Position numbers and translations under genes: made by a program
Source of the DNA: a virus
Strand: one strand, 5' to 3'
Length of the DNA: 61,839 bases
Virus record (IMG/VR): IMGVR_UViG_3300029566_000017
Part shown: positions 1,833-53,718 of the stretch, one piece after another
How positions within the stretch are numbered: the stretch's first letter is position 1
How the letters are laid out: every line of letters begins with the position of its first letter
The notes under the pieces: generated by a model
The model's input: only the letters and a program-made list of their open reading frames with translations
The model's database searches: none
Told to the model about the DNA's origin: nothing

Positions 1833-2942
1833 TTAAAATTCACTATTTTTAGTTGAGTTATCAACGGTTAAACTCTCTAATTTGTCTACAGCTTTCCTAT
1901 TAGCTTCTGGCATCATGTGAGCGTAAAATTCAAAGGTTGTGTTTTTATCTGCGTGACCAATCTGTTTAGCGACTGCTAGAATATCTCCGGTAGCTGCGTA
2001 AAGCATTGAAGCATAGCTGTGCCGGAGAATGTGAGGACTAATTCTTGGCAAGCCTAACTTAGTACAGTGATATTGCATATATGTTCTGATAGCCGACGGT
2101 TTTATGCCATCAAAGATATAATCTTCTGGTTTAGCCTTATAAAGCGTGCCTATGTAGTTTATGATTTGATTATAGAGGTATTTCGGTATTTCAACATCAC
2201 GCACGGAGCTTCTTGTTTTTGGAGTGCTAATGACAAATTCATCTTTATTGTGTATCCTCATTAGTGATTTATTAACATGAATTTTATAGGGCGATATATC
2301 CTCGATTTTTAGAGCCATAACTTCACCTATGCGCAAGCCTGCCCAAAAGATGATATTGAACAGTACTCTATGTGAAGCTATCTTAATATCGTCATAGAAA
2401 ACCTTATACTGTTCTACTGTCCATAGTTTCGCACGTGTATCATTTGAATATGGCTTTACCCTGTCAGTAAGAGTAACAGGGTTATTTTTTGTCCCGCAAT
2501 TTCTTTTAGAGAATTCAAAGACCTGGCTTAATTCTGAACGTATCTGATTTAGCAGTCTGCTTGAGAGCCGTTCTTTTTTTGATTTCTCATTTTGAATGGC
2601 AAGCCAGCGCATAACTTGAAGCGGAGTAACCTTGTCGACGTTCATATTCTCAAAGAAAGGGAGGACATAATATTTTAATGCCTGGTTTTTCTTGTCGACA
2701 GTCGACTGCTTTAATTCTCCTAGCTTCAATTTGCTGTCCAGCTCTTGCTGGTATGCTGCAATAACTTCGCTAAATTTCGGATCATGTGTATGAGTTTTGT
2801 TTCTCATGTCGCTTTCATACTTTTCAGCATCACGCTTTTTGCCAAAACCTCTTTTTGTTGTATGCTTTCTTAAGCCTTGCCAATCTTTATACCAAAAAGA
2901 GCAGTCCCATTTTCCTGTTTTTGGATTTTTTGTTACTGTCAT
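1833..2942 (-). CDS. int: Tyrosine site-specific integrase
   Basis: C-terminal catalytic signature ...HILRHSYAS...GHADKNTTFEFYAH (R..HxxR..Y). The N-terminal part is SAM-like. Confidence 0.9.
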   Translation of the reverse strand: MTVTKNPKTGKWDCSFWYKDWQGLRKHTTKRGFGKKRDAEKYESDMRNKTHTHDPKFSEVIAAYQQELDSKLKLGELKQSTVDKKNQALKYYVLPFFENMNVDKVTPLQVMRWLAIQNEKSKKERLSSRLLNQIRSELSQVFEFSKRNCGTKNNPVTLTDRVKPYSNDTRAKLWTVEQYKVFYDDIKIASHRVLFNIIFWAGLRIGEVMALKIEDISPYKIHVNKSLMRIHNKDEFVISTPKTRSSVRDVEIPKYLYNQIINYIGTLYKAKPEDYIFDGIKPSAIRTYMQYHCTKLGLPRISPHILRHSYASMLYAATGDILAVAKQIGHADKNTTFEFYAHMMPEANRKAVDKLESLTVDNSTKNSEF

Positions 2943-5759: not shown

Positions 5760-5943
5760 TATACACCTCAATTTTAAAAAAAATAAGCGAAAAAACACTT
5801 TACTTTTATAACTACATCTGTTATAATATAACTATAAAAATTAAACTAAAAAACGCTATAAAAATTAAACGCTCAGAAAAACGCTTTATTTTTATAACTA
5901 TTCTATCACGTTTTATTTTTAAAATCAAGAAAGGAGAGAATTT
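5760..5943. promoter_or_regulatory. Divergent switch region between cI-like and cro-like genes. It holds the palindrome TTATAACtacatctGTTATAA and three AAACGCT direct repeats.
   Basis: AT-rich 184-bp intergenic region with inverted and direct repeats, as in phage operator regions. Confidence 0.5.
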
Positions 5944-8626: not shown

Positions 8627-9538
8627 ATGGAGAGCTGGTTCAAGGTTAGTGCCGATGTATTCGACAGCGAAAAAATTAAGATACTTCGTGCTGATATGAA
8701 GATTGGTGATAGCCTGGCATTAATGTGGTTCTTCCTGTTAGCTTTAGCTCGTAAAAAAAACGATGGTGGTTATGTATACGCTACCGAAGGTGTAGCGTAT
8801 ACACCTAAAACCTTAGCTGCTGTTGGTGGTTTTAAGCCTAAAATTGCGGAAACTGCTTTAGAAGTATTTCGGCAGTATAACATGATTGATATAGAGGATA
8901 ACGGCTATATCTATATTGTAGGCTGGGGTGAGTATCAGAACGCCGAAGAGCTTTCAAAGCTCAAGGAGCGTGAGCGGTGCAAGGAAGCAATGAGAGTTAA
9001 AAGGCAGCGTGAGAAGCAATCCAAAACCTGTAACAATGACGTAACAAACACAGATGTTACGAAATGTTACGAAGATGTTACGTGTAACAAAAGCGTAACA
9101 AGTCAAGATGTTACACGTAACAACGATGTAACAAACACAGATGTTACGGATAAGAATAAGAGTAAGAATAAGAAAGAGAATAAGAGTAAGAGTAACAACA
9201 ATAACTTTAGTAGTGGTTGTTACGATAAAAATGCTGCCGTTACGTGTAACAGTTACGAAAATGTTACGAGCGATAATAATCCTGTTGGCTTTTGGAATCA
9301 AAATGTTACGCCGATAACGCCATACATTGCAGAGCGGTTACAGGCTATTGCTAAGGAGCACGGCGAGCTGATAGCTATGCAGGCGGTTACGATAACAGCG
9401 CAGCAAGGCAAGAAGTCAATAGCCTATTGTGAGGGAGTTGCAAGAAACCTTGCGAGCGGTGACAATCAAAAACCGAAAAAGCCGCCGGATAGTTTTAAAC
9501 CGCCGGACGATCAAACAGACCTGGACAAATATTTTTAG
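8627..9538 (+). CDS. Phage replisome organiser with a DnaD-like C-terminal domain
   Basis: N-terminal replisome-organiser-like region, an internal low-complexity region encoded by the iterons, and a DnaD/DnaB_2-like C-terminal domain (YIAERLQAIAKEHGELIAMQAVTITAQQGKKSIAYCEGVARNL). Confidence 0.7.
   Translation: MESWFKVSADVFDSEKIKILRADMKIGDSLALMWFFLLALARKKNDGGYVYATEGVAYTPKTLAAVGGFKPKIAETALEVFRQYNMIDIEDNGYIYIVGWGEYQNAEELSKLKERERCKEAMRVKRQREKQSKTCNNDVTNTDVTKCYEDVTCNKSVTSQDVTRNNDVTNTDVTDKNKSKNKKENKSKSNNNNFSSGCYDKNAAVTCNSYENVTSDNNPVGFWNQNVTPITPYIAERLQAIAKEHGELIAMQAVTITAQQGKKSIAYCEGVARNLASGDNQKPKKPPDSFKPPDDQTDLDKYF
9030..9320. repeat. Putative origin of replication: at least 12 copies of the GATGTTACG / CGTAAC core and an A-rich AAGAATAAG tract
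   Basis: Iterated GTTAC(G) motifs in both orientations, plus a 20-bp direct repeat GA(C/T)GTAACAAACACAGATGTTACG, all inside the organiser gene. Confidence 0.55.
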
Positions 9539-13848: not shown

Positions 13849-14314
13849 GCCGTTTATTTTAGATCCGTGCTGTGGAAGCAAGATGTTCTACCATGACAAA
13901 GAGAGCGACGCTGTTATGTTTTGTGACATACGAGAGCTGCATACAAAGCTCTGCGACGGAAGAGAATTACATATTCAGCCAGACAAGATAATTGATGTAA
14001 CCAACATGGAGAATATAGCAGATGAAGCATTTAGCTACATCATTTTTGACCCGCCGCACCTGGTAAAAGTTGGCGAGAGCAGTTGGTTGGCACAGAAGTA
14101 TGGGCAACTTCCGGTGCTATGGGAAGAGTGGATGACAAAGGCGTTTGCTGAGTGCTTTAGAGTGCTTAAACCTGGTGGGATGCTGCTGTTTAAATGGAGC
14201 GACGAGGACATTCCGCATAAGGATGTGCTGAGGTGTGCGTTACCTTATCTTCCGCTTGCCGGAGATAAGCAAGGGAAAACACGTTGGACGTTTTTTGTAA
14301 AAATAGAGAGGTGA
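13841..14314 (+). CDS. DNA methyltransferase-like protein
   Basis: Motif I-like ILDPCCGS and motif IV-like IIFDPPH. Confidence 0.5.
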   Translation: MDKPFILDPCCGSKMFYHDKESDAVMFCDIRELHTKLCDGRELHIQPDKIIDVTNMENIADEAFSYIIFDPPHLVKVGESSWLAQKYGQLPVLWEEWMTKAFAECFRVLKPGGMLLFKWSDEDIPHKDVLRCALPYLPLAGDKQGKTRWTFFVKIER

Positions 14315-14319
14315 TAATA

Positions 14320-14487
14320 ATGACCGTCGAAGAGTTTTATAAATGGGCAGTCAAACATGACTGCGAAGGAATGGAAATAACAGTCAAATGCTATGACGAA
14401 AATGGTAAAGAAGATGAATGCTGGCTCATTAACGACCGGTGCATCGAAGAACGTCAAGGCAAGGAAGTGGTTATTAATTTGAGATAA
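14320..14487 (+). CDS. Small hypothetical protein, paralogue A1 (MTVEEFYKWAVKHDCE...)
   Basis: Paralogue of 15992-16159 (MTIEEFYKWAVKNDCE...). About 75% nucleotide identity at the start. Confidence 0.5.
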   Translation: MTVEEFYKWAVKHDCEGMEITVKCYDENGKEDECWLINDRCIEERQGKEVVINLR

Positions 14488-14515
14488 AAGTTGAAAGGAA
14501 GCGGAGGTAGTAGCA

Positions 14516-14956
14516 GTGAGCAAAAATCTTATTCCGGCAGTCGCTGAAATGCTGGGGCTAAAATTGAGAGAAAAATTTAGGATTGACAGGTATGACGAAG
14601 TATATTTTTTCACCGAGGAAAATTTAGAAGTAAACAAGGCATATCCTCAAAATATACCATTACTTGCATCGCCTGATGTGTTGGAAGCATTAATCAAGGG
14701 AGAATGCGAGATTATTAAAATTCCCTGGCTGCCGAATCGTGACGAAGATTATTGGACGTTTGGATTGTATTGTGATAAATCTTCAAAGCTGAAGTGGATT
14801 GCAACTAGGATGACTTGGAACGGCGAGCCTGACGATTATGCAGCCTATAAAGCTGGGTGGGTGTTCGCGACGCAAGATGATGCGGAAAAAGCATTGTCGA
14901 ATGTAGCTAAAGAGCTAAAGACGCCATATATATTAAGGGGGCAATTAAATGGCTAA
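14516..14956 (+). CDS. Hypothetical protein, paralogue B1 (MSKNLIPAVAEMLGL...)
   Basis: GTG start with RBS GGAGGTAG. Paralogue of 16524-16931. Confidence 0.55.
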   Translation: MSKNLIPAVAEMLGLKLREKFRIDRYDEVYFFTEENLEVNKAYPQNIPLLASPDVLEALIKGECEIIKIPWLPNRDEDYWTFGLYCDKSSKLKWIATRMTWNGEPDDYAAYKAGWVFATQDDAEKALSNVAKELKTPYILRGQLNG

Positions 14957-15950: not shown

Positions 15951-15991
15951 TAAAAACTTTTTTGTTAACAAGTGGAGCAGAGGTGTTAATA

Positions 15992-16159
15992 ATGACAATT
16001 GAAGAATTTTATAAGTGGGCGGTTAAAAATGACTGTGAAGACAAGCAAGTTGTTATTTATGCTCACGATAACATTGGAAATGAAGTTGAAAACTGGCTGG
16101 ATGAAGATTATTTAACAGAAGGTAAAGAATGCGTAAGCATTGATTGTATATGGGAGTGA
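15992..16159 (+). CDS. Small hypothetical protein, paralogue A2
   Basis: Paralogue of 14320-14487. Confidence 0.5.
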   Translation: MTIEEFYKWAVKNDCEDKQVVIYAHDNIGNEVENWLDEDYLTEGKECVSIDCIWE

Positions 16160-16165
16160 TAACTG

Positions 16166-16363
16166 ATGAAAAAATACATTGTTTCCGGTAAAACAACAGC
16201 TTTTATCTCAGTAGAAATAGAAGCAGAAAGTAAAGAAGAAGCCATTAAAAAGGCTTACGAAGAGTGTTCTTTTGTCAACAACAGTGGATGGGACAAATTA
16301 ATTAGAACAAGCATTGTATGTGACAATGAAGTTGAATATACCCAAGCTGAAGAAATTAACTAA
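16166..16363 (+). CDS. Hypothetical protein
   Basis: RBS GGGAGTGA. Confidence 0.45.
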   Translation: MKKYIVSGKTTAFISVEIEAESKEEAIKKAYEECSFVNNSGWDKLIRTSIVCDNEVEYTQAEEIN

Positions 16364-16523
16364 ATAGGGAGTGATAATGATAACATGGCAGAATTATTAT
16401 TAACCGCTGGTACTGACGAAGAATTTTTCGCTATCATTGGTCTTACGATGTTTATGGTGTTTTTAGTATATATAGGTTTTGAGGTTTACGACAAACACTG
16501 CGAAAAGAAATGGAGGAAAGAAG

Positions 16524-16931
16524 ATGAGCAAAAATCTAATCCCCGAAATAGCTAAGATGCTCGGCGTGGAGCTGGGAGAAGAATTTAAAATTAAGGGTTA
16601 TGACGGATTGACTTATAAGCTTACCTATAATGGGCTAGAATTAACTACTGTTGATGGTCAGAAAACGAAATGGTTCGACCACGGAGCATTAAACAGCTTG
16701 CTGAAAGGCAAAATGGAAATCGTTAAATTGCCGTGGAAGCCGAAGAAAGGCGATGTTTATTCTACCTTTGGGCGTTTGGGCGATAAGTGGGTTGTTCGCT
16801 CGTTGTGGTGGGGCGGATTCCCGGAAGAGTATGCCCTGCTAGACAAAGGCTGGATTTACCGCACGAGGGCAGAAGCAGAAGCAGCATTGCCTGCCGTGGC
16901 TAAAGAGTTAGGCGTGGAGTACGAGTTATGA
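16524..16931 (+). CDS. Hypothetical protein, paralogue B2 (MSKNLIPEIAKMLGV...)
   Basis: RBS AAATGGAGGAAAG. Paralogue of 14516-14956. Confidence 0.55.
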   Translation: MSKNLIPEIAKMLGVELGEEFKIKGYDGLTYKLTYNGLELTTVDGQKTKWFDHGALNSLLKGKMEIVKLPWKPKKGDVYSTFGRLGDKWVVRSLWWGGFPEEYALLDKGWIYRTRAEAEAALPAVAKELGVEYEL

Positions 16932-17676: not shown

Positions 17677-17750
17677 AGGGTGCGGCGGCTGGGTTGGCGA
17701 AGCCAGCCTGCGTAAAATCCAAGAATTCCCGCGCCGCCGCTTTTTATAAG
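17677..17750. other. GC-rich nested stem-loop (GCGGCGGCTGGG...CCAGCC...GCGCCGCCGCTTTTT), a terminator or structured RNA
   Basis: Outer stem GCGGCGGC/GCCGCCGC and inner stem GGCTGG/CCAGCC, followed by TTTTT. The local GC is far above the genome average. Confidence 0.45.
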
Positions 17751-20601: not shown

Positions 20602-20906
20602 TGAAAGTAACCAAAACGCCGCTTGAAAGCGTAGAAGCGCACAGTAAGAATCAATATGTTGCATATAACAGCACATTCACAATGCCGTTGCCTGAGAATA
20701 ACGTAAATCATCCGAAACACTACACCAAAGGCGGTATTGAGTGTATAGATGCCCTAAAGGCTGCTACCGTTGGCAAAACAGGCATTGAAGCTGTCTGCGT
20801 TGCCAACATTATTAAATATTTATGGCGTTACGAAGAGAAGAACGGCGTAGAAGATTGCCTAAAAGCAAAGTGGTATCTTGACCGCCTTATCGAAGAACTT
20901 AAATAA
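20601..20906 (+). CDS. DUF3310-like phage protein
   Basis: Motif HPKHYTKGGIECIDA...KYLWRY...KAKWYLDRLI is recalled as the DUF3310 signature. Confidence 0.5.
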   Translation: MKVTKTPLESVEAHSKNQYVAYNSTFTMPLPENNVNHPKHYTKGGIECIDALKAATVGKTGIEAVCVANIIKYLWRYEEKNGVEDCLKAKWYLDRLIEELK

Positions 20907-20923
20907 CAGAAGGGAGTAAGCGC

Positions 20924-21613
20924 ATGGAAGATATGACTGTAAATGAAAATCAAAGCACGATAACCGTTCCGCTGGCGTATTTCGAAGAACTTATCGAACG
21001 TGTGGCAGAGCAGACCGCCAAAAAAACCTCTAAAAAGCTGTGTGATGATCTGTACAGCAAAGAAGCACAGCGGAGGGATTTCGACAAGCGACTGTATAAC
21101 GTGCGCTTGCTGCTAAAGAATTACAGAAGCCTTCAAGAACACGCAGCGTTAAAGACTAGCGAGGTTGTCAATATCGACGATGAGCAGATTTCTGCTATTG
21201 AGATTCTTGATTCGTTCCAAAACCTGAAAAGCATGGGAGCTAATGAGCTAAAGCTTGAAAGCATCATAAGCTCAACCATGCGAACGAAAGTGCTGATAAA
21301 CTACATGGACGATATGATAGCACTTTACAAGCAGACCAGGTATAACAGCGGCAAGCAGGAAGATTTGCGCCGGGCAGATGTACTTGACGTGCTGTTCCTT
21401 AAACCTTGTCCGCCGGAAGCGTATGTCACTGATATAGTCGCAAGCCTTGCGCAAAAATGGTCAGTAAGCGAAAGGCAGATATGGCGTGATACAAACGATG
21501 CTGTCGAGCAACTAACCGCTTTGCTGTTTGGCGTGGACGGCGTGAACCTGCTGGAAGATAAAAAGCGCAGAAGGGCAGCTCGCCTTGCTGAAGAAAAAAA
21601 TATCGAAAAATAA
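20924..21613 (+). CDS. Hypothetical protein, possibly a transcription regulator with a C-terminal HTH-like segment
   Basis: RBS AAGGGAG. It ends immediately upstream of the repeated promoter cassette. Confidence 0.5.
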   Translation: MEDMTVNENQSTITVPLAYFEELIERVAEQTAKKTSKKLCDDLYSKEAQRRDFDKRLYNVRLLLKNYRSLQEHAALKTSEVVNIDDEQISAIEILDSFQNLKSMGANELKLESIISSTMRTKVLINYMDDMIALYKQTRYNSGKQEDLRRADVLDVLFLKPCPPEAYVTDIVASLAQKWSVSERQIWRDTNDAVEQLTALLFGVDGVNLLEDKKRRRAARLAEEKNIEK

Positions 21614-21617
21614 TAAG

Positions 21618-21664
21618 AAAAACTCACCTTTTATAAAGAAAACTCTTTACAAAAGGTGAGTTTT
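21618..21664. terminator. 14-bp perfect hairpin AAAACTCACCTTTT...AAAAGGTGAGTTTT followed by a T-run
   Basis: Inverted repeat seen directly. The -35 box of promoter P1 lies in its loop. Confidence 0.55.
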
Positions 21665-21674
21665 ATAGTATAAT
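21646..21674 (+). promoter_or_regulatory. Promoter P1, TTTACA-17 nt-TATAAT. First copy of the repeated promoter-leader cassette.
   Basis: Consensus -35 and -10 boxes with 17-nt spacing. The downstream leader hairpin GTAGG...CCTAC and RBS GAAAGGAAGTCG are shared with 26686-26760. Confidence 0.55.
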
Positions 21675-21722
21675 ATAAGTGTAGGGAAGATAGAGTAACC
21701 TACAAGAAAGGAAGTCGTAAAA

Positions 21723-21899
21723 ATGACACAAGAAAAAATAACATTAGCATTAAGAGAAGCACTGCTAGATTGGTTCGACCTTAAAAAAATTGAAGACAAA
21801 TTCCCTAAAAGCAGCGTTGCTAGAAATAAAGCGCAACGAAAATGGAATGAGGTTGAAAAGCTTGCAAATATGCTGCAAGCAATCGAAGAAGCTAAATAA
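21723..21899 (+). CDS. Small hypothetical protein, 58 aa
   Basis: Leader GAAAGGAAGTCGTAAAA before the ATG. Confidence 0.4.
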   Translation: MTQEKITLALREALLDWFDLKKIEDKFPKSSVARNKAQRKWNEVEKLANMLQAIEEAK

Positions 21900-21962
21900 A
21901 AGCTGATGACAAGGGCAATAGCCCTTGTAAAGCTGGCAGGCAGACAGTTCAAACCCTGTGCC
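21898..21962 (+). ncRNA. Candidate structured RNA element, copy A: two hairpins, CUGAUGA-CAAGGGC-AAUA-GCCCUUG-UAAAGCU-GGC(AG)ACAG-UUCAAACC-CUGUGCC
   Basis: About 65 nt, 75% identical to 22647-22711. Every difference in the stems is compensatory. Confidence 0.45.
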
Positions 21963-21992
21963 TAAAGCTTAAACTTTAAGGAGGACTTAAAA

Positions 21993-22244
21993 ATGACTTA
22001 TCAAGAAAAGCAAGAAATGAAAAAGCTTGCCTGCAAATGCCTGGAAAAATACTTCGGCTTTGCTCCGGCTATGAAGCAGATTGTTCTGCTTGAAAGCGCA
22101 AGCAATGGATATACAGTTGATTATCTTCTGTTCAGCATCGGCTATAACGGAAGAGAATTTCAGCTCAGAAGAACCTTTACCTGGGGTAAAGATACAGTGG
22201 AATATAAATATTGCCGCTACGATGTTACCATGATTGAGCAATAG
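21993..22244 (+). CDS. Hypothetical protein
   Basis: RBS AAGGAGG. Confidence 0.5.
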   Translation: MTYQEKQEMKKLACKCLEKYFGFAPAMKQIVLLESASNGYTVDYLLFSIGYNGREFQLRRTFTWGKDTVEYKYCRYDVTMIEQ

Positions 22245-22260
22245 AAAGGAGTAGAGCACA

Positions 22261-22473
22261 ATGAAATTAACTATTAACCAATGGAAAAAGTTACTGGAAT
22301 TAGCAGAACGTGATTATTGCGAGAAAAAGAAAACTTACGATGAAGGACGTAAGCTTTGGGCATCACTAGGACATGATGACTGGGAGATTAACGAAAAATA
22401 TTTGCTCGTTGAAAAAGAGCGTAAGCAAGCAGCATATGATCTGTTGCAAGCGTTAAAGACTCAAACAATTTAA
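22261..22473 (+). CDS. Hypothetical protein
   Basis: RBS AAAGGAG. Confidence 0.5.
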   Translation: MKLTINQWKKLLELAERDYCEKKKTYDEGRKLWASLGHDDWEINEKYLLVEKERKQAAYDLLQALKTQTI

Positions 22474-22486
22474 GGAGGAAAAACCA

Positions 22487-22648
22487 ATGAAAGAACCTAA
22501 AGACATGACTAACGAAGAATTAAAGCAGGAAAACGCTAGGCTGATTAAGATTTACAACAGCTCGTGCGACCCATGGCATCATCAATGCTTGAATGAGCAC
22601 TTTGAAGAGCTGGAAGAAATTGCAGCGGAAAGAGGTATAGAGCTTTAA
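22487..22648 (+). CDS. Small hypothetical protein, 53 aa
   Basis: RBS AAGGAGG before the ATG. Confidence 0.4.
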   Translation: MKEPKDMTNEELKQENARLIKIYNSSCDPWHHQCLNEHFEELEEIAAERGIEL

Positions 22649-22711
22649 AAGCTGATGACAGGAGCTTAAGCTCCTGTAAAGCTACCGGGCAGAAGGTTCA
22701 AAGTCCTTGCC
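22647..22711 (+). ncRNA. Candidate structured RNA element, copy B: CUGAUGA-CAGGAGC-UUAA-GCUCCUG-UAAAGCU-GGC(AG)AAGG-UUCAAAGU-CCUUGCC
   Basis: Paralogue of 21898-21962 with compensatory substitutions in both stems. Confidence 0.45.
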
Positions 22712-22738
22712 AATAGTTTTAGAAAGGAAGTCGATTTT

Positions 22739-23203
22739 ATGAACTATGCAATTTTACTGAAAACTGTGGTTGATGCCAATGGCAAAACCAATTCTGTGGA
22801 GAAAGTACCATACGAGGGAGCTATCACGCTTAAGTCAATGTATGAACTGTGCGAATGCGAGTACGTCGACATTAAAGAAGTTCCGCTTCAGCTGGTAGAG
22901 TTCGACGGACAACTCGGAATCATTCCCGGTGTTACACTGATTTTCGATGAAGAATTTCTTCTGAAAAATGAAAACCCGGTGGCCAATGAGCTGGCAAGTG
23001 CTATTTATGGTTACGGCAGATTACATGACCAATGCTTGTGCGGTAACGTGCTTCTGTGCTACACAAACGAAGAAGGCGAATGTATGCCGTTCAGTGAGAG
23101 TGAAGCAAACATTGTTGTAAAGTGCTTAACAAGAATCAACAAGCATATTGGAGATATGGAATTTAAGGTCCAAAAACCAATGATGAAATTTATGACTTTT
23201 TAG
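22739..23203 (+). CDS. Hypothetical protein
   Basis: Leader GAAAGGAAGTCGATTTT before the ATG. Confidence 0.5.
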   Translation: MNYAILLKTVVDANGKTNSVEKVPYEGAITLKSMYELCECEYVDIKEVPLQLVEFDGQLGIIPGVTLIFDEEFLLKNENPVANELASAIYGYGRLHDQCLCGNVLLCYTNEEGECMPFSESEANIVVKCLTRINKHIGDMEFKVQKPMMKFMTF

Positions 23204-23215
23204 GAGGGATACATA

Positions 23216-23662
23216 ATGTTGAAATACAAAGATTACTCAACCTTGGTCAACGAACAGCAAAAGGAATACGAAAGCTTTACCAAAGATAAAATGTTCTTTG
23301 CTTTTACTGAAGAACAGTTCAACGAAGGCATGAAAAGATTTGGGTTAGCTCCTAATGATACCGACAAGGTTTATCAAATCGGCTTCGGAGGATATATCCT
23401 TCGTGCCCAGGCTAAGGCTCATAATGATTTAGTAAAACGCCTGAACATCGAAAAGAAGGAGCACATGAAAGATTTCGACTTCTTGAAATCAGCCTTCCGT
23501 TACGAACTTGCTAACCATGAGTTTTGTATAACTTATGAGCTTGACGATACGCTAGATGCTCTGCTTTTGACTTATGAGCAAGTTAACTCTGACCCGGTTA
23601 TAAAAAAAGCTTTACTTGAAGCCAAGAAAGAATATCTTAAGAATTGCGAAGATTGGATGTGA
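23216..23662 (+). CDS. Hypothetical protein
   Basis: RBS GGAGGGA. Confidence 0.5.
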   Translation: MLKYKDYSTLVNEQQKEYESFTKDKMFFAFTEEQFNEGMKRFGLAPNDTDKVYQIGFGGYILRAQAKAHNDLVKRLNIEKKEHMKDFDFLKSAFRYELANHEFCITYELDDTLDALLLTYEQVNSDPVIKKALLEAKKEYLKNCEDWM

Positions 23663-23838
23663 TTGATGTGAGAACAAGACAACTTATAAAGTATGTGCTG
23701 ATGCTGGAAACGCTCCCTCTTGCCGGAGATGAATTCCATGAACTCATGGAAAATACTAAACGCCGCGAAAAGAGAATCAATGTACTGCGTGAAAAGCTTC
23801 TGATGCCGAGAAGCTACTACCCCTACAAACAGCCATAA
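23644..23838 (+). CDS. Hypothetical small protein with an uncertain, non-ATG start
   Basis: Open frame only. Confidence 0.25.
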   Translation: MRRLDVIDVRTRQLIKYVLMLETLPLAGDEFHELMENTKRREKRINVLREKLLMPRSYYPYKQP

Positions 23839-23901
23839 ATAAAAGAAAGAACCAGCGTACACCGAAAGGTGTGCGCTGGAAAAAAGATTGGAGTGAAAGT
23901 C

Positions 23902-24495
23902 ATGTGTAAAGTAGCAGATAAAAGTTACAAAGAGTTATGCGAAGCGTTGCTCGGAAAAGAAGCTTATAAGGTTTCTGAACTAACGGCACAGAAATTGTAT
24001 CGACTGGAAGATACCGACGAGCTGAAAGCATATGGATTAGACAAACAGAAAGCAGAAGCGTTCCTGTGTGGTGTAGAGTTAGGCAAAAGAGCTTTCACCG
24101 AAACCAAAGCTGAGGAAAAAAGATACTGCTGTGCTCCGCAAGACTTAGCTGAATATATGATGCCGAAGCTGCGGTATTTAAATCATGAAGAATTCTGGGT
24201 AATTGCAGCAGACAGCAAGAACAGAATAATTGAGGCAAGAGCTATACTGAAAGGAACGCTAACTAACTGTTATGTTCATCCTAGAGAGATTTTCAAGTAT
24301 GCCATCATGAAAAATGCTGCCGCAATTTTTGTAGCACATAATCATCCTTCAGGTCTTGCAACACCTAGCGCTGACGATAAAAAGTTAACCAGGGATATTG
24401 TTAAAGCCGGGGCAATAATGGGAATACCTTGCTATGATCATATCATTATAGGTGACGGCAGTTATTACAGTTTCCAGGAAGATGAACAAATGTAA
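23902..24495 (+). CDS. radC: RadC-like JAB/MPN domain protein
   Basis: JAMM motif HNHPSG...S.DD and a RadC-like N-terminal region. Confidence 0.8.
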   Translation: MCKVADKSYKELCEALLGKEAYKVSELTAQKLYRLEDTDELKAYGLDKQKAEAFLCGVELGKRAFTETKAEEKRYCCAPQDLAEYMMPKLRYLNHEEFWVIAADSKNRIIEARAILKGTLTNCYVHPREIFKYAIMKNAAAIFVAHNHPSGLATPSADDKKLTRDIVKAGAIMGIPCYDHIIIGDGSYYSFQEDEQM

Positions 24496-24508
24496 GGAGG
24501 AAAGAAAA

Positions 24509-24793
24509 ATGAACGCTTATGAAATTATGTACGTTATGCGCCCGGAGCAGGAAATAGTCGAGGATGTTATCTTGAAGTTCAATAACTTAATCGTTTCTAA
24601 TGGTGGCGTAGTTGAAAAGACAGAACGCTGGGGAGAAAGAAGGATGCCTTACGTGATTCAGGACTACGAGAACGGTATTTATGTCCTGGTTACGTTTCAT
24701 GCAAGCAAGAGGTGTGTACTCGAGCTTCACAAAGCAATGGAGATTACCGAAGAAGTGCTCCGGCATATGATTATCAGAAAGGGGGTATGCTAA
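24509..24793 (+). CDS. rpsF: Ribosomal protein bS6 homologue
   Basis: It aligns along the full length of E. coli S6 from memory. The query is MNAYEIMYVMRPEQ...ERWGERRMPY...YVLV...EVLRHMIIRK and E. coli has MRHYEIVFMVHPDQ...DWGRRQLAY...YVLM...AVIRSMVMRT. RBS AAGGAGG at 8 nt. Confidence 0.65.
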   Translation: MNAYEIMYVMRPEQEIVEDVILKFNNLIVSNGGVVEKTERWGERRMPYVIQDYENGIYVLVTFHASKRCVLELHKAMEITEEVLRHMIIRKGVC

Positions 24794-26321: not shown

Positions 26322-26357
26322 AAAAAGCCTGCGGGAAATCTCGCAGGCAATATTTTT
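26322..26357. terminator. Rho-independent terminator (AAAAAGCCTGCG...CGCAGGCAATATTTTT)
   Basis: Stem CCTGCG/CGCAGG followed by a T-run. Confidence 0.6.
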
Positions 26358-26432: not shown

Positions 26433-26666
26433 ATGTCAATAGAAAACAAAATCAAGGTATTAATCGCTTCAACAGGAAAAAACCAGGCTACATTAGCTAG
26501 GGAAATGGGCATTACGCCAATGTCCCTGAACTACAAGGTTAAAAAATGCAAATCACTTAAGCTTCTGCTGGAGCTTGCAACTGCCTGTGACTTTGAGGTA
26601 GTTCTGCGCAAGCGTGACGGCAGTATTGAGTATGAGGTAACTAGAGAAGATTTAGAAGAAAACTAA
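26433..26666 (+). CDS. Small HTH DNA-binding protein
   Basis: HTH-like segment NQATLAREMGITPMSLNYKV. RBS AAGGTGGTG. Confidence 0.5.
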   Translation: MSIENKIKVLIASTGKNQATLAREMGITPMSLNYKVKKCKSLKLLLELATACDFEVVLRKRDGSIEYEVTREDLEEN

Positions 26667-26685
26667 CATTTCATAAAGAAAACTC

Positions 26686-26714
26686 TTTACAAAAGCAGAG
26701 AAATACAGTATAAT
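26686..26714 (+). promoter_or_regulatory. Promoter P2, TTTACA-17 nt-TATAAT. Second copy of the promoter-leader cassette.
   Basis: A 90-bp region near-identical to 21640-21722. Confidence 0.55.
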
Positions 26715-26762
26715 ATAATTGTAGGGAAGATAGAAAGCCTACAAGAAAGGAAGTCGGTTATA

Positions 26763-28590: not shown

Positions 28591-28610
28591 AAATATAACT
28601 AATTATTTTT

Positions 28611-28639
28611 GAAAAAACACTTTACAAATAAACAAAAAT
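28611..28639 (+). promoter_or_regulatory. Promoter P3, TTTACA-17 nt-TATAAT. Third and most diverged copy of the cassette.
   Basis: Shares CTTTACAAA...GTAGTATAATATAAGT with P1 and P2. Confidence 0.5.
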
Positions 28640-28675
28640 GTAGTATAATATAAGTATAGAAAGGAGGTACAAAAC

Positions 28676-29922: not shown

Positions 29923-30762
29923 ATGAAAATCTTTCTGGCAGCAGCCGGTGGCGGATGGAACTGGTTCCAAAGAGCATTTTGGCCAGATCAAGAGAACATA
30001 AAAGCAAAGGAGAGCATCCCTAAAATGAAAATTCATCTTGCAGGGGGAGAAAGCAGAGCCGAAATTTTGGCTGAAGAATCAAAAGTTCTTCGACCGTATA
30101 TCCTTGAATCTTTCCTTATGACAACGCCGAAATCAGTACAATACTTGCCGCTGTATAGTGATTATATGCTCGATTCTGGAGCATTCAGCATGTTGATGGG
30201 CAATGCGAAAAAAGTTGATTTAAAAACTTATGTAGATTCTTATATTGCGTATATCCAAAAATACAATGTGCAGAAATTTTTTGAGCTTGACATTGACCCT
30301 ATTGTAGGCTACGAAGAAGTTTTGAAAATCAGAAAATACATTGCTGAAAAAGTTGGAAGGTCACCGATTCCTGTATGGCATAAAAGCCGTGGCATGAAAG
30401 ATTTTATTGAAATGTGCAAGCGGTATAAGTATGTTGCAATAGGCGGTTATGTTAGCGGCGAATTTACAAAAGGTGAAGTTGAAAAATTTCCTTTGCTTAT
30501 CAAAGAAGCACACTCGCATGGAGCTAAAATTCACGGTTTGGGATTTACTCAATTAAAATATTTGCCGCGCTTTCATTTTGACAGTGTAGATTCTACTGCG
30601 TGGGTATCTGGAAATAGATTCGGGGCAGTATATAAGTTCGATGGAAAAACGATGGTTAAATATAATAAGCCTACTGGTATGCGAGTAAAAAATAAAGAAG
30701 TAGCTATTAATAATTTTGTAGAATGGGTAAAATTCCAAGAGTATGCAAAGACTCATTTTTGA
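29923..30762 (+). CDS. dpdA: DpdA-like (tRNA-guanine transglycosylase-like) DNA 7-deazaguanine transglycosylase. The assignment rests mainly on synteny.
   Basis: About 280 aa, immediately upstream of queC, queD, queE and folE, the canonical phage dpdA context. The start is uncertain; an alternative is the MKIHLAGG codon near 30025. Confidence 0.55.
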   Translation: MKIFLAAAGGGWNWFQRAFWPDQENIKAKESIPKMKIHLAGGESRAEILAEESKVLRPYILESFLMTTPKSVQYLPLYSDYMLDSGAFSMLMGNAKKVDLKTYVDSYIAYIQKYNVQKFFELDIDPIVGYEEVLKIRKYIAEKVGRSPIPVWHKSRGMKDFIEMCKRYKYVAIGGYVSGEFTKGEVEKFPLLIKEAHSHGAKIHGLGFTQLKYLPRFHFDSVDSTAWVSGNRFGAVYKFDGKTMVKYNKPTGMRVKNKEVAINNFVEWVKFQEYAKTHF

Positions 30763-30778
30763 AAAGAGGTAATAACAA

Positions 30779-31468
30779 ATGAAAAAAGCAGTTGTTTTAT
30801 TAAGCGGCGGTGTAGATAGCACTACTTGTTTAGCTATTGCAGTCAAAAAATATGGTACAGAAAAAGTTTTGGCCTTATCTGCTTTTTATGGACAAAGGCA
30901 CAAAAGAGAAATTGAAAGCGCAAAAAAAGTCGCTGCTTTTTATGGCGTAGACCATAAAGAAACTGATTTGTCGCTGGCGTTCTCTATGAGCGATTGCCCA
31001 TTGCTGGCTAAAAGCAAGCATGATATTAAACATGAATCCTATGCAGAACAACTTAAAGAGCTTGGCGGTGAAGGTACTGTTGATACCTATGTGCCGTTCA
31101 GAAACGGTCTGTTACTTTCTTATGCGGCCGCTGTTGCTGTAAGCGTAGAAGCAGAAGCTATTTATTATGGTGCTCATGCTGACGATGCAGCAGGGCGAGC
31201 ATATCCTGATTGTACGCCTGAATTCGTTGATTATATGAATAAAGCGATTTTTGAGGGTAGCGGACGAACCACACATCTTGAAGCACCGCTTATCAATCTA
31301 AATAAAGCAGGCGTTGTTAAGCTTGGATTAGAGCTTAACGCACCATATCAGTTTACATGGAGCTGCTACGAGGGCGGAGAAAAGCCTTGCGGAACTTGCG
31401 GAACGTGTATTGACCGTGCGATGGCATTTGAAGCTAACGGCGTGAAAGACCCTGCGTTGGAGGATTAA
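30779..31468 (+). CDS. queC: 7-cyano-7-deazaguanine synthase
   Basis: PP-loop SGGVDS. C-terminal CGTCGTC zinc motif. Confidence 0.85.
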   Translation: MKKAVVLLSGGVDSTTCLAIAVKKYGTEKVLALSAFYGQRHKREIESAKKVAAFYGVDHKETDLSLAFSMSDCPLLAKSKHDIKHESYAEQLKELGGEGTVDTYVPFRNGLLLSYAAAVAVSVEAEAIYYGAHADDAAGRAYPDCTPEFVDYMNKAIFEGSGRTTHLEAPLINLNKAGVVKLGLELNAPYQFTWSCYEGGEKPCGTCGTCIDRAMAFEANGVKDPALED

Positions 31469-31469
31469 T

Positions 31470-31799
31470 ATGTATACAGTAACAAAACGATTAGAAATTT
31501 CGGCAGCACACCAACTTTCTTTAAATTATGAAAGTAAGTGCAAAAATTTACATGGACATAATTGGATTATCTGCGTAACTTGCCAAAGCGAAACCTTAGA
31601 CGCTAACGGCATGGTAGTAGATTTCAAGCATATTAAAAACCTTGTTTCTGATATGCTTGACCATCAATATTTAAACGACGTTTTACAATGCAATCCGACA
31701 GCAGAAAACATTGCTCGTTGGATTTGCGAAAAAGTCCCGCACTGCGTTAAGGTGTCAGTGCAGGAAAGCGAAGGGAATGTTGCCGTGTATGAAATATAA
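31470..31799 (+). CDS. queD: 6-carboxy-5,6,7,8-tetrahydropterin synthase
   Basis: Motif CKNLHGHNW. Confidence 0.85.
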   Translation: MYTVTKRLEISAAHQLSLNYESKCKNLHGHNWIICVTCQSETLDANGMVVDFKHIKNLVSDMLDHQYLNDVLQCNPTAENIARWICEKVPHCVKVSVQESEGNVAVYEI

Positions 31800-32442
31800 T
31801 GTAGTGGAAATTTTTAAAAGTATCGAAGGAGAAGGAAAGCGAACTGGCTATCCTTCTGTATTTGTTCGTTTGGCTGGCTGCAACCTGCGTTGTAGCTATT
31901 GCGATACAATCTATGCTCAACAATTCGCAGATGCTGCCAGCAGTTATAATGAGCAGGAGCTTATGGATGAGATAAGCGAGTATAACTGCAAGCGTGTAAC
32001 TATTACCGGCGGTGAACCACTCCTGCACGACTTGCAGCCACTTCTTGAACTGCTGCACAAAGCCAAATATGAGGTAAATATCGAAACAAATGGTGCTGTA
32101 CCGCTTTACAAAAAAAGGTTAAGCGGTATTTTTTATACCATTGATTACAAGTGCGGCACGTCTGGCGAATCTAATAAAATGCTAATGGATAATTACAAGC
32201 ACCTTAACGCAAAGGACGTTATAAAATTTGTAGTTGGCAGCAAAGAAGATTTTAACGACGTAGACCGGGTGCTTGACTATTGCAAAAAAATCAAATGCCA
32301 GGCAAAAGTTTACATCTCGCCAGTGTGGGACGCAATCGAACCTGCGGAGCTTGTAGAGTACGCAAAAAATTCGCTGTATAACATCTGCGTACAAGTGCAG
32401 CTTCATAAAATTATTTGGGATAAAGATAAAAGGGGCGTGTAA
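31789..32442 (+). CDS. queE: 7-carboxy-7-deazaguanine synthase (radical SAM)
   Basis: Start MKYNVVEIFKSIEGEG. Cluster CNLRCSYCDT. Confidence 0.85.
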   Translation: MKYNVVEIFKSIEGEGKRTGYPSVFVRLAGCNLRCSYCDTIYAQQFADAASSYNEQELMDEISEYNCKRVTITGGEPLLHDLQPLLELLHKAKYEVNIETNGAVPLYKKRLSGIFYTIDYKCGTSGESNKMLMDNYKHLNAKDVIKFVVGSKEDFNDVDRVLDYCKKIKCQAKVYISPVWDAIEPAELVEYAKNSLYNICVQVQLHKIIWDKDKRGV

Positions 32443-32443
32443 C

Positions 32444-33010
32444 ATGGACGCTAAAAAGCTAGAACAAGCCGCAAGGCTTATTATTGAGGGCATCGGCGAA
32501 AACCCGAACCGAGAGGGACTTCTTGAAACTCCTAAACGGTTCGCAAAAATGCTAATGGAGCAATTAGAGTACGCAAGTGTCAGCAACGATGAAATCGCAA
32601 AGAAATTCAACAAGTGCTTTTCCTGTGATAACGATGATATGGTGGTGTTAAAAGGCATCAACTGCTTTTCTTATTGCGAGCACCATATCGCACTCATGTA
32701 TAACATGACTGTTGATGTAGGCTATATCCCTAACGGTAAAGTTATCGGCATTAGCAAGATTGCACGTATTGCTGACGCAGTAACAAAACGTCTGCAAATT
32801 CAAGAGCGTATCGGCAAGGAAATTCGCGACATTCTTACAAAAATTTTAGGGACAGAGGACGTTATTGTAGTTATTCAGGGCGAACACTCTTGTATGACTG
32901 CTAGAGGAATTAAAAAGCCAGGAGTAAAAACAAAGACTGCTTCTTGTGGTGGACAATTCTTGGTAAACGCAGAGCTGCGAAAAGAATTTTACCTTGTAGA
33001 CAGCAAATAA
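32444..33010 (+). CDS. folE: GTP cyclohydrolase I
   Basis: Motifs CEHHI and GEHSCMTARG. Confidence 0.85.
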   Translation: MDAKKLEQAARLIIEGIGENPNREGLLETPKRFAKMLMEQLEYASVSNDEIAKKFNKCFSCDNDDMVVLKGINCFSYCEHHIALMYNMTVDVGYIPNGKVIGISKIARIADAVTKRLQIQERIGKEIRDILTKILGTEDVIVVIQGEHSCMTARGIKKPGVKTKTASCGGQFLVNAELRKEFYLVDSK

Positions 33011-52653: not shown

Positions 52654-53718
52654 ATGAAAAACTTTAGTGAAGAAATACATAAGCTTAATGACCTTGGAGC
52701 TATTTACCTTCTTCTTGGTGCTACCTGTAATATGTCATGTAGGCATTGCGTTCAGACCCCTATAAAAAGCTGCTTTAACCTTTCTCCGCAAGGGGAAAAC
52801 TTATCGCAAGAGGTTAAAGACTTTATAGTTGCGTGGAGTAACCTGCCTTGGAAATACGCTGAAAATAATCCGCGCCGATTATATTTTTGGGGTGGAGAAC
52901 CTTTGCTTTATTGGGAAACCATTAAGAAGCTTGTGCTTGAATTTAAACAAAGCGGCGTAAAGAATGTCAGCTATAGAATTTTTAGCAATGGATTGCTTTT
53001 AAATGATGAAATAGTTGACTTCTGTAATGAGAATGATATTTGGTTTATTATGAGCTATGATGCACCAAATGCAAGAGCGGCGAGAAATGCAGTACCTAGT
53101 AAAGAAGCCTGCAAGAAGTTTTTACGTATAAGAAAAAGAACTGTCAATACTGTTTTTAATGCTATTAATGATAATATGGCAGAAGCTTTTGATTGGCTAC
53201 ATTATACGTTTCCTGAAACAGAAATTACTTGCGGTTTTATTAATGTATTAAGTGAGAATACTCCATTGGATTTGTATGAGTTTAAACCGAGTGCAGTAAA
53301 AAAAGCGGTTAAGAATTTGTGGCTGATCGCAAAATCTGATAGTAAGATTGCTCCATATATTCGACATTGGTTCTACTCAAAAATTTTGCGTGTAAGGAAT
53401 TTTGATAAAGAAGAATTTTATGAATATCCTTATCCGCCTTGCCGTCCTGCCGTTGTAAGCCTTAGCGTAAATTTTAACGGAGAAGTTATGCTGTGTCATA
53501 ATACTGATAGAATTGTTGGGCATATTACAGATAACTTTGTAGAGTTACAAGAAAAGCATAGAAAAATTTTCAATGAACTTCTGCCTGTTAAATGTAAAAC
53601 TTGTGAGCATTTGGATATTTGCCGTTGCATTTGTCCTATTGCGGTGCAAAAAGATGGCGAATTATGTTATTGTGAATATTTGCGGGAATTTTGGGGAGCA
53701 GTAAAAGAGGTGATGTAG
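52654..53718 (+). CDS. Radical SAM enzyme with a SPASM-like C-terminal Cys cluster
   Basis: Motifs CNMSCRHC (CxxxCxxC), GGEPLL, and C-terminal CRPA...C..C.....C.C.C...C.C. Confidence 0.75.
   Translation: MKNFSEEIHKLNDLGAIYLLLGATCNMSCRHCVQTPIKSCFNLSPQGENLSQEVKDFIVAWSNLPWKYAENNPRRLYFWGGEPLLYWETIKKLVLEFKQSGVKNVSYRIFSNGLLLNDEIVDFCNENDIWFIMSYDAPNARAARNAVPSKEACKKFLRIRKRTVNTVFNAINDNMAEAFDWLHYTFPETEITCGFINVLSENTPLDLYEFKPSAVKKAVKNLWLIAKSDSKIAPYIRHWFYSKILRVRNFDKEEFYEYPYPPCRPAVVSLSVNFNGEVMLCHNTDRIVGHITDNFVELQEKHRKIFNELLPVKCKTCEHLDICRCICPIAVQKDGELCYCEYLREFWGAVKEVM

Follow-up and report, generated by a model that had tools for sequence, protein, structure and literature searches.

Why does an operon of an uncultivated gut phage carry two copies of one structured RNA element around a small set of genes, and what may these copies do to the transcript? 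The question is raised by a window of 61,839 nt (the whole stretch of DNA analysed here, IMG/VR record IMGVR_UViG_3300029566_000017), in which copy B of the element occupies positions 22647-22711 and reads, directly from the sequence, AAAAGCUGAUGACAGGAGCUUAAGCUCCUGUAAAGCUACCGGGCAGAAGGUUCAAAGUCCUUGCC. In the initial annotation, the element was laid out as CUGAUGA, a hairpin CAGGAGC-UUAA-GCUCCUG, UAAAGCU and a second hairpin GGC(AG)AAGG-UUCAAAGU-CCUUGCC. This layout is correct and can be spelled out as AAAAGCUGAUGAC AGGAGC UUAA GCUCCU G UAAAGCU ACCG GGC AG AAGG UUCAAAGU CCUU GCC. Correct, too, are the positions given for the surroundings: copy A lies at 21898-21962, 749 nt upstream of copy B, shares its orientation and is 74% identical to it over 74 nt, and the next ORF after copy B begins at 22739. 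The ORF upstream of copy B (22487-22648) closes with the stop codon TAA (22646-22648), one base ahead of that copy. For the core pattern AGCTGATGAC-N(12-30)-GTAAAGCT, two occurrences are counted in the window versus 0.00 expected (100 shuffles); this two-copy occurrence is not due to chance. Thus, a structured RNA element is indeed present in two copies, in sense orientation and around a small gene set, four points on which the annotation was right. What it described correctly as a structured element, but did not recognize as a member of a family, is a twister.

Identity of the element

Both copies match RF02684, the type-P5 twister family of clan CL00120. The twister class itself was reportedly described by Roth et al. 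in 2014. The whole window was scanned against all 4227 Rfam families, the curated gathering score for RF02684 being 37.6 bits. Versus this threshold, copy B (22650-22708) reaches 48.3 bits and copy A (21901-21959) 44.7 bits, each covering positions 1-58 of the 58 model positions; the E-values of the two copies, for the whole window and 4227 families, are 5e-7 and 5e-6. Besides the two copies, the window holds no Rfam match at the gathering threshold or at E≤1. As judged from their sequences, copies A and B are type-P5 twister self-cleaving ribozymes, a known RNA class, with cleavage predicted.

Twisters, reviewed in PMC5408937 and PMC6765202, are defined by the essential stems P1, P2 and P4, of which P2 has 4 bp and is prolonged by a sheared A·G pair, and by two pseudoknots. 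T1 joins internal loop L1 to terminal loop L4 by three Watson-Crick pairs, and T2 joins L2 to two bulged L4 nucleotides by two pairs. The cleavage dinucleotide, next to P1, is usually U-A with a conserved A on its 3′ side, and is followed by the A of the sheared pair; loop L4 in crystal structures contains an ‘essentially invariant G-C’ and a U·A pair (PMC5408937). In both copies, the order of the elements is that of type P5, in which both ends of the chain lie between P4 and the 3′ strand of P2 and a P5 helix closes the structure. With RF02684 twisters they share the succession of P2 3′ strand, G-A, T1, P1, U-AA, P2 5′ strand, T2 and P4, a P2 of 4 bp, an 8-nt L4 of the form U-NNN-AA-NN with the invariant closing G-C pair, two pseudoknots, a score over the curated threshold and a phage or prophage neighbourhood. 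They differ in T1, which is UGA/UCA here and a G-C-rich triplet in the consensus, in T2, which is AC/GU (copy B) or GG/CC (copy A) where the consensus has a ‘conserved GC’, and in a lineage-specific 3-bp outer extension of P4 together with a weak P5. The differences in both pseudoknots are compensated. The consensus GAGgG/UCcC is converted here into GAUGA/UUCA, and GC/GC into AC/GU (copy B) or GG/CC (copy A), while the unpaired core (G-A, U-AA, U and AA in L4, and the G-C pair that closes P4) is intact in both copies. Since every deviation from the Rfam consensus occurs in a paired position and is compensated, with the unpaired core kept, the fold is supported. This is a known curated family in its typical setting, and nothing is altered in the knowledge of the class itself.

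Architecture of the two copies

The constituents of the element as first laid out can be assigned to twister parts (Table 1). CUGAUGA combines the P2 3′ strand with the catalytic G-A and the strand of T1; the first hairpin is P1; UAAAGCU comprises the U-A site and the 5′ strand of P2; and only the inner 4 bp of the second hairpin belong to the ribozyme core, as P4. G22654 is predicted to occupy the place of the active-site guanine (G45 in Oryza sativa, written O. sativa G45, and G48 in env22), and A22655 that of the partner in the A·A pair of solved twisters. The correspondence to G45 is based on alignment to the Rfam consensus GAGgG and on PMC5408937, according to which the active-site guanine is found directly 3′ of the P2 strand and is followed by A. 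The predicted scissile bond of copy B is located between U22677 and A22678.

In P2, three of the four pairs covary in relatives, with AGCU/AGCU, UGCA/UGCA and CACA/UGUG as variants. All seven pairs of P1 covary, and its loop is free to vary (UUAA, AUAA, GUAA and GCAA among relatives). In copy B, the 8 nt of L4 are, in order, U, UCA (which pairs in T1), AA and GU (which pairs in T2). The closing G-C pair of P4 is found in 26 of 26 sequences and matches the published invariant G-C (PMC5408937); U22697 and A22702 of L4, which correspond to the published trans U·A pair, are present as well. The outer GGC/GCC pairs are kept in element types A, B, C and E without covariation, and are missing in type D and in relative L213. 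A P5 helix of 5-7 bp is conceivable in A, B, L154, L213_1 and L213_4 (GAGCU/AGUUU in B, AAGCU/AGCUU in A) and is absent in other relatives; mostly it is no better than with shuffled flanks, and for copy B, where 5-7 bp are possible, the comparison with shuffled flanks gives p=0.07.

Table 1. Coordinates of the ribozymes, of the parts of copy B and of neighbouring or recognizable phage genes in the window
Feature	Position	Strand	Evidence or remark
Integrase	1833-2942	-	
ERF recombinase, DnaD-like and DnaC-like loaders, SSB, RecU	7.6-11.9 kb		
Promoter-like TTTACA-17-TATAAT	21646-21674	+	11/12 consensus matches; consensus match only
Twister copy A	21901-21959	+	44.7 bits versus 37.6; predicted cut between U21928 and A21929
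Three-ORF cassette between ribozymes (83, 70, 53 aa)	21993-22648	+	ORF calls
Candidate P5 5′ strand GAGCU	22640-22644	+	Inside end of upstream ORF; would pair with 22715-22719; weak
Twister copy B core	22650-22708	+	RF02684 48.3 bits; 70.4 bits with covariance model R1 built here
P2 3′ strand AGCU	22650-22653	+	4 bp with 22680-22683, as in crystal structures (PMC5408937)
G-A of loop L1	22654-22655	+	Invariant in 26/26 distinct relatives
T1 pseudoknot strand UGA	22656-22658	+	Pairs with UCA 22698-22700 in P4 loop
P1 hairpin CAGGAGC-UUAA-GCUCCUG	22659-22676	+	7 bp and tetraloop; in minimum-energy fold
U-AA junction	22677-22679	+	Aligned with invariant UAA of Rfam consensus; invariant in relatives
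P2 5′ strand AGCU	22680-22683	+	Minimum-energy fold, covariation
T2 pseudoknot strand AC	22684-22685	+	Pairs with GU 22703-22704
P4 hairpin AAGG-UUCAAAGU-CCUU	22693-22708	+	4 bp; 3 pairs covary
Outer P4 extension GGC/GCC and AG bulge	22688-22690 with 22709-22711	+	Minimum-energy fold; optional
Candidate P5 3′ strand AGUUU	22715-22719	+	AGCUU in most relatives; weak
Ribosome-binding leader GAAAGGAAGUCG and AUG of DUF3846 gene	22722-22741	+	Leader repeated after promoter-like modules, at 21706 and 26745
DUF3846 gene	22739-23203	+	Pfam E=1.8e-6
Terminator-like hairpin	26327-26348	+	9-bp stem, 7 G-C pairs, then AATATTTTTA; consensus match only
Large terminase, portal, Mu F-like protein, protease, major capsid protein	33-40 kb		
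DUF3383, tape-measure protein, baseplate hub, Baseplate J	42-51 kb		

Conservation, covariation and stability of the fold

Copies A and B differ at 16 of the 59 core positions. Twelve of these 16 differences constitute six fully compensated pairs, two each in P1, T2 and P4, and the remaining four fall in a linker or the loop of P1; P2, T1 and the catalytic core are free of differences. The same behaviour is seen on a larger scale. A covariance model built from ten diverse copies and limited to nested stems aligned 31 matches, 26 of them distinct. Among these 26 relatives, 98.7% of the pair cells are standard pairs, versus 17-45% when partners are slid by 1-3 columns, and double-sided changes occur in 18 of the 20 pairs, including all three of T1 and both of T2. 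The nested pairs change on both sides in 13 of 15 cases, with 98-100% of the cells paired, counts which for P1, P2 and P4 carry the caveat that the alignment was fitted to nested stems by the covariance model. The covariation score is 0.747 versus 0.207 in shuffles, a value reached in none of 500 shuffles.

Because such models cannot encode pseudoknots, the covariation test of T1 and T2 is independent of them. T1 appears in relatives as UGA/UCA, CGA/UCG, CGG/CCG, GGA/UCC, UGG/CCA and GUA/UAC; T2 appears as AC/GU (copy B), GG/CC (copy A) and GC/GC (type C), with both pairs covarying and 100% of the cells paired. These compensated variants widen the known sequence space of twister pseudoknots. 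In addition, a descriptor written from the twister definition and scanned over 3.1 Mb of fetched loci returns 98 instances (23 distinct) and none in three shuffled copies. When the requirement for T1, T2 or P2 is dropped in turn, 22 of 22 candidates still contain the dropped element. Collectively, the compensated deviations from the consensus, the differences between A and B, the relatives and the covariation indicate that the twister fold is real.

For the 62-nt core, energy minimization returns the nested part of the twister fold (z = -2.8 and -2.3). Once flanks of 15 nt are added, the nested structure of lowest energy instead joins AGCU motifs in the flanks to both strands of P2. This alternative lies at -29 to -30 kcal/mol versus -23 to -25 kcal/mol for the active nested fold and is 5-6 kcal/mol more stable, a comparison that does not settle which fold is formed, since the energy model ignores the five pseudoknot pairs and tertiary contacts. 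Furthermore, T1 has two A-U pairs versus three G-C pairs in the consensus, so that folding may be weaker or need more Mg2+. An A-U-rich T1 and a competing nested fold, predicted to be more stable with flanks, are what could be expected of a twister fold that is catalytically dead or very slow and acts as a structured spacer, e.g. as an RNase entry site, as stabilizing hairpins or as a protein-binding site. Many computationally predicted ribozymes have also failed to cleave when tested (PMC8782182). Such a reading is nevertheless unlikely. In divergent lineages, the unpaired core is strictly conserved while the helices drift with compensation, a pattern expected of selection for catalysis and not for hairpins alone, and the replacement of a twister by a hammerhead at the equivalent position in relatives (see below) is hard to explain without cleavage.

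Genomic context and proposed cleavage of the operon mRNA

By its sequence, the window belongs to an uncultivated temperate tailed phage, or prophage, of the gut. All genes from 5.3 kb onward, and both ribozymes, are on the + strand. The promoter-like site belongs to a 76-nt module that lies 230 nt upstream of copy A and recurs at 26659 and 28594. Together, the promoter-like site and the terminator-like hairpin suggest a 4.7-kb transcription unit running from the one to the other and holding both ribozymes. The order in this putative unit is a 58-aa ORF, twister A, the ORFs of 83, 70 and 53 aa, twister B and the DUF3846 gene, followed by genes for DUF7659, a RadC-like JAB protein, a homologue of ribosomal protein bS6 and further ORFs. 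The small ribozyme-flanked ORFs of the window, and those of relatives L213 and L120, match no Pfam or PHROG family. As read from this arrangement, the ribozymes fill intergenic spacers, on the sense strand, in an early or accessory operon.

Copy B is very probably a type-P5 twister, encoded in sense orientation within an operon of this temperate tailed phage, that cleaves itself and so splits the polycistronic mRNA, and self-cleavage of the polycistronic mRNA is most likely the role of both copies. On transcription, the 59-nt core would fold into P2 (AGCU/AGCU), P1 (7 bp) and P4 (4 bp), and the 8-nt P4 loop would dock back via T1 (UGA/UCA) and T2 (AC/GU). This fold would bring G22654 and A22678 to the U22677-A22678 bond, to be cut by internal transesterification, leaving an upstream piece that ends with a 2′,3′-cyclic phosphate and a downstream piece that begins with a 5′-hydroxyl. 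Cuts at 21928/21929 and 22677/22678 would probably divide a transcript starting near 21680 into three pieces: one of about 250 nt with the 58-aa ORF, a second of 749 nt with the three small ORFs, and a third of at least 3.6 kb, with its first nucleotide 61 nt ahead of the DUF3846 gene. Each 3′ end so created would close in the P1 hairpin, and each new 5′ end would bear the P4 hairpin just before the ribosome-binding site. In vivo, the likely outcome of such cleavage is that the segments of the operon gain separate stabilities and translation rates, an effect on expression also inferred in the literature for such ribozymes (PMC6765202). Capping of both new ends by hairpins, formed after cleavage through refolding of the four palindromic AGCU motifs, was considered as well; it is predicted for copy A, not for copy B, and is not general in relatives, and is mentioned as a remark only.

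Distribution and arrangement in related phages

An exact-core scan of IMG/VR finds at least 118 viral contigs, most of them from one human-associated metagenome project. Relaxed pattern scans, which admitted diversity in P2 and T1, return mostly chance matches, which served as a negative control of ~1.7 Mb; the real ones are L154, L213, L251, L305, L328 and L346. In the window, a search with the covariance model, filters off, yields two sites (70.4 and 69.5 bits) and a next best of 12 bits. As both copies are in the seed of the model, the informative outcome is the lack of a third copy. Eight other intergenic gaps, folded in search of ribozyme-like RNAs, contain nothing convincing except one strong hairpin. 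The region 20900-24500 has no match in 50,697 GenBank phage records (megablast and blastn), and the DUF3846 protein has none among cultured phages (tblastn). Similarly, the large terminase is ≤52% identical to those of cultured phages, so that no cultured relative or host can be named. A scan of representative genomes points to two gut MAGs only, of a Phascolarctobacterium sp. and a Bacilli bacterium, a faint hint at the host.

The placement of the ribozymes relative to genes is regular. In 88 of the 98 instances, the distance from a stop codon to the first ribozyme nucleotide is -1 to +7 nt; in 91, P4 is followed after 24-35 nt by a start codon with a Shine-Dalgarno sequence. In four close relatives (L060, L064, L066 and L019), the cassette of three ORFs is missing and the junction contains one twister only; in other close relatives, one ORF of the cassette is replaced. 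The breakpoints lie at the twisters. In L005, L118 and L119, a different type of twister directly precedes the DUF3846 homologue and another follows it, upstream of an HTH gene. L213 contains six twisters in 2.6 kb, between single genes or gene pairs. Finally, L120, L039, L251, L328 and L346 combine a twister with a type II hammerhead ~1 kb away in the same orientation; in L120, a single 314-aa ORF fills the space between the two, each ribozyme directly adjoining one of its ends. Since a hammerhead occupies the slot of the partner in these relatives, the shared property is RNA cleavage.

These arrangements bear on the function that the initial annotation had sketched, in which the two copies act together, for example as processing or antitermination sites. 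Processing is the reading that gains support, both copies being, by prediction, twister self-cleaving ribozymes. Antitermination is unsupported, with no terminator-like site adjoining either copy and a hammerhead as partner in related phages. Joint action of the two copies is likewise unsupported; close relatives have a single copy at the same junction.

A stronger form of joint action can be imagined, in which the two twisters excise, as a pair, the 749-nt RNA between the cuts (21929-22677), the ends of which are sealed into a translatable circle with three ORFs. Sealing would be due to an RtcB-type ligase of the host or to reversal of the ribozyme, and the locus would be a natural counterpart of the engineered Tornado system and, if true, would provide a stable circular phage mRNA from a twister pair. 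The predicted ends (5′-OH and 2′,3′-cyclic phosphate) are those of Tornado chemistry and of circularization by RtcB, as far as PMC9013764 describes it. Moreover, P2 (AGCU) and T1 (UGA/UCA) are the same in A and B, with all differences inside one ribozyme half, so that the 3′ half of A and the 5′ half of B can re-form a chimeric twister, and circular products were considered for tandem prophage hammerheads (PMC3088659). Both the circle and its sealing by either route are decidedly unlikely, however, because L060, L064, L066 and L019 have one twister only at the junction, because neighbouring twisters in L005, L118 and L213 have unlike T1 strands with which a chimera would mispair, and because the partner is a hammerhead in other relatives. 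For tandem hammerheads, Perreault et al. sought circular or spliced products without success (PMC3088659), and no RtcB or RNA ligase domain is detected in the 58 ORFs of the window scanned versus Pfam. Tornado (Litke and Jaffrey 2019), as presented in PMC9013764, resembles the present locus in its two flanking twisters and in ends that are substrates of RtcB; it differs in being engineered, with type P3 and P1 twisters and added ends designed to form a stem, whereas both twisters here are of type P5, would be cut in mid-ribozyme, and their ligation is hypothetical.

The breakpoints of cassette presence, absence and replacement, which fall exactly at the twisters, could also be explained by a role of the 60-75-bp repeats in DNA, as recombination linkers (‘boundary sequences’) for the swapping or deletion of cassettes. 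Hybrids are in line with this idea: L060 and L064 combine the upstream flank of A with the core of B, and L118 combines the flank of B with the core of A. Yet compensatory changes that keep the helices and two pseudoknots, strand-specific G-U pairs, an invariable sense orientation and a constant spacing from stop and start codons all show selection on the RNA. A primary function in DNA is thus very improbable and disfavoured, and the recombination is most plausibly a side effect of elements whose most likely function remains self-cleavage of the mRNA.

Other RNA classes

A terminator or antiterminator, a hammerhead, a box C/D or kink-turn RNA, or a tRNA-like element can be given practically no credit, even if CUGAUGA is also a motif of the hammerhead core and of the C box, the element has two stable hairpins, and the GGUUCAAAGUCC loop (GUUCAAA) resembles a tRNA T-loop. 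In a sensitive Rfam scan of 21600-23000, no hammerhead, tRNA or other family is found at E≤10 over the two elements, the only other Rfam matches touching them being two C/D-box snoRNA models (E=0.49 and 3.2, 16-28 bits below threshold). A hammerhead core consists of CUGAUGA, stem II, GAAA, stem III and a cleavage triplet NUH; here CUGAUGA is present, but UAAA stands in the place of GAAA, and no hammerhead model matches at E≤10. A tRNA or tRNA-like fold (cloverleaf, T-arm) is contradicted by ARAGORN, which calls no tRNA genes in the window, and by the lack of Rfam tRNA matches in the region. For a terminator, antiterminator or kink-turn, no terminator-like site is called at either copy and Rfam offers no support. 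Nor are the copies twister-sister ribozymes, which have a similar scaffold without the twister pseudoknots and cleave the opposite loop strand; twister-P5 is the reported match at both sites, and both pseudoknots covary.

Relation to known phage and bacterial ribozymes

The assignment turns an anonymous element of widespread, uncultivated human-gut phages into an annotated pair of ribozymes, with cut sites predicted to the nucleotide. The locus and its relatives form a compact series of natural variants in which to study why phages would cleave their early transcripts. The series comprises one twister, two twisters, a twister with a hammerhead, six twisters in a row, and the DUF3846 gene after two types of twister.

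A close precedent is provided by the hammerheads of prophages, several of which surround single genes or short gene blocks and cleave in vitro and in E. coli (PMC3088659). Twisters have been found in the same gene neighbourhoods as clustered hammerheads (PMC6765202). The clustered prophage hammerheads (Perreault et al. 2011, PMC3088659) share with the present twisters the sense strand, the position flanking genes or blocks and the vicinity of anti-restriction-type genes, as well as the proposed role, namely the conversion of long phage transcripts into gene- or operon-length mRNAs. They differ in fold and active site, and their cleavage has been demonstrated (PMC3088659), whereas it is predicted here.

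A further parallel is the glmS ribozyme, found in the 5′ UTR of the glmS gene in Gram-positive bacteria, which is likewise a cis-cleaving ribozyme of a bacterial mRNA (PMC6765202). While glmS is a cofactor-dependent metabolite sensor, twisters are ligand-free, and no sensor domain is present here. The likeness lies in the product with a 5′-OH, which alters the fate of the downstream message (PMC6765202).

AGCU motifs around the ribozymes and ribozyme arrays in relatives

Both predicted type-P5 twister ribozymes (twisters A and B) are surrounded by four copies of the palindrome AGCU, two of them being the strands of the P2 stem and two lying in the flanks. The four motifs around each ribozyme allow an alternative nested fold, which competes with the active fold made of stems P1, P2 and P4. 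At twister A, they also permit a hairpin that would form after cleavage and bury the new 5′ end. The four-AGCU pattern is not general among other lineages.

Relatives carry comparable ribozymes in clusters. An environmental viral contig (L213) contains six type-P5 twisters within 2.6 kb (L213 1745–4335). All six have the same P2 (CACA/UGUG), and five different, compensated triplets form the T1 pseudoknot. In a contig of a gut metagenome-assembled genome (L120, 6606–7701), a single 314-aa ORF is flanked by a twister on one side and by a type II hammerhead on the other.

Expression signals and genes of the putative operon

A palindrome (21619–21664, each arm 20 bp long) overlaps the 21.6-kb copy of the promoter-like module and could be an operator. 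The ribosome-binding leader GAAAGGAAGTCG follows promoter modules in two of its copies and twister B in another; the gene downstream of the ribozyme thus shares the leader of transcript-first genes. Further along the putative operon, the GAAA-capped hairpin is very stable (z = −7.7). The run of bases after it consists of A rather than U, and the hairpin might serve as an RNase III site or stabilise the mRNA. The phage also encodes a homologue of ribosomal protein bS6, with a full-length domain (E = 4e-26), in the same putative operon and 1.8 kb 3′ of twister B. Phages whose hosts are animal-associated bacteria are reportedly enriched for virus-encoded bS6 (PMC6375957).

Coordinates of the features considered here
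Feature	Position	Strand	Details
Promoter-like module, ~76 nt, repeated	21619–21694, 26659–26734, 28594–28669, 5789–5840		TTTACA-17-TATAAT-ATAA
Ribosome-binding leader GAAAGGAAGTCG, five occurrences	6973, 12019, 21706, 22722, 26745		
AGCU sites, copy A (twister A)	21889–21893, 21901–21904, 21931–21934, 21966–21970		Matching four places in copy B (twister B)
Hairpin, 12 bp, GAAA tetraloop	23852–23879	+	Between ORF 23644–23838 and RadC-like gene
bS6 homologue	24509–24793 (ORF tool: 24452–24793)	+	Pfam Ribosomal_S6
Iteron-like direct repeats	9030–9198	+	Within DnaD-like replisome-organiser gene (8627–9538)
Branched G+C-rich hairpin	17682–17745	+	GCGGCGGC...GCCGCCGC, then UUUUUAU; in 88-nt intergenic gap
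7-Deazaguanine (queuosine-precursor) biosynthesis cluster	29923–33010	+	Immediately 5′ of terminase
Radical-SAM / 4Fe-4S protein gene	52654–53718	+	Within tail/baseplate module

Other regions of the genome

The iteron-like repeats consist of three 32-nt units (GTAACA...GTTACG) and three 12-nt units (AGAATAAGA), and probably represent the phage replication origin. In the early region, two pairs of paralogous segments with 72–84% identity, at 14307–14597 and 15979–16605 (+), indicate tandem duplication of a small-gene block. The branched hairpin is probably an intrinsic terminator within this region.

The 7-deazaguanine cluster encodes QueC, a PTPS/QueD-like protein, a QueE-like radical-SAM protein and GTP cyclohydrolase I, which suggests that the phage modifies its own DNA. 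An adjoining ORF of 279 aa has no match in Pfam. The separate radical-SAM / 4Fe-4S gene occupies an unusual location among tail and baseplate genes.
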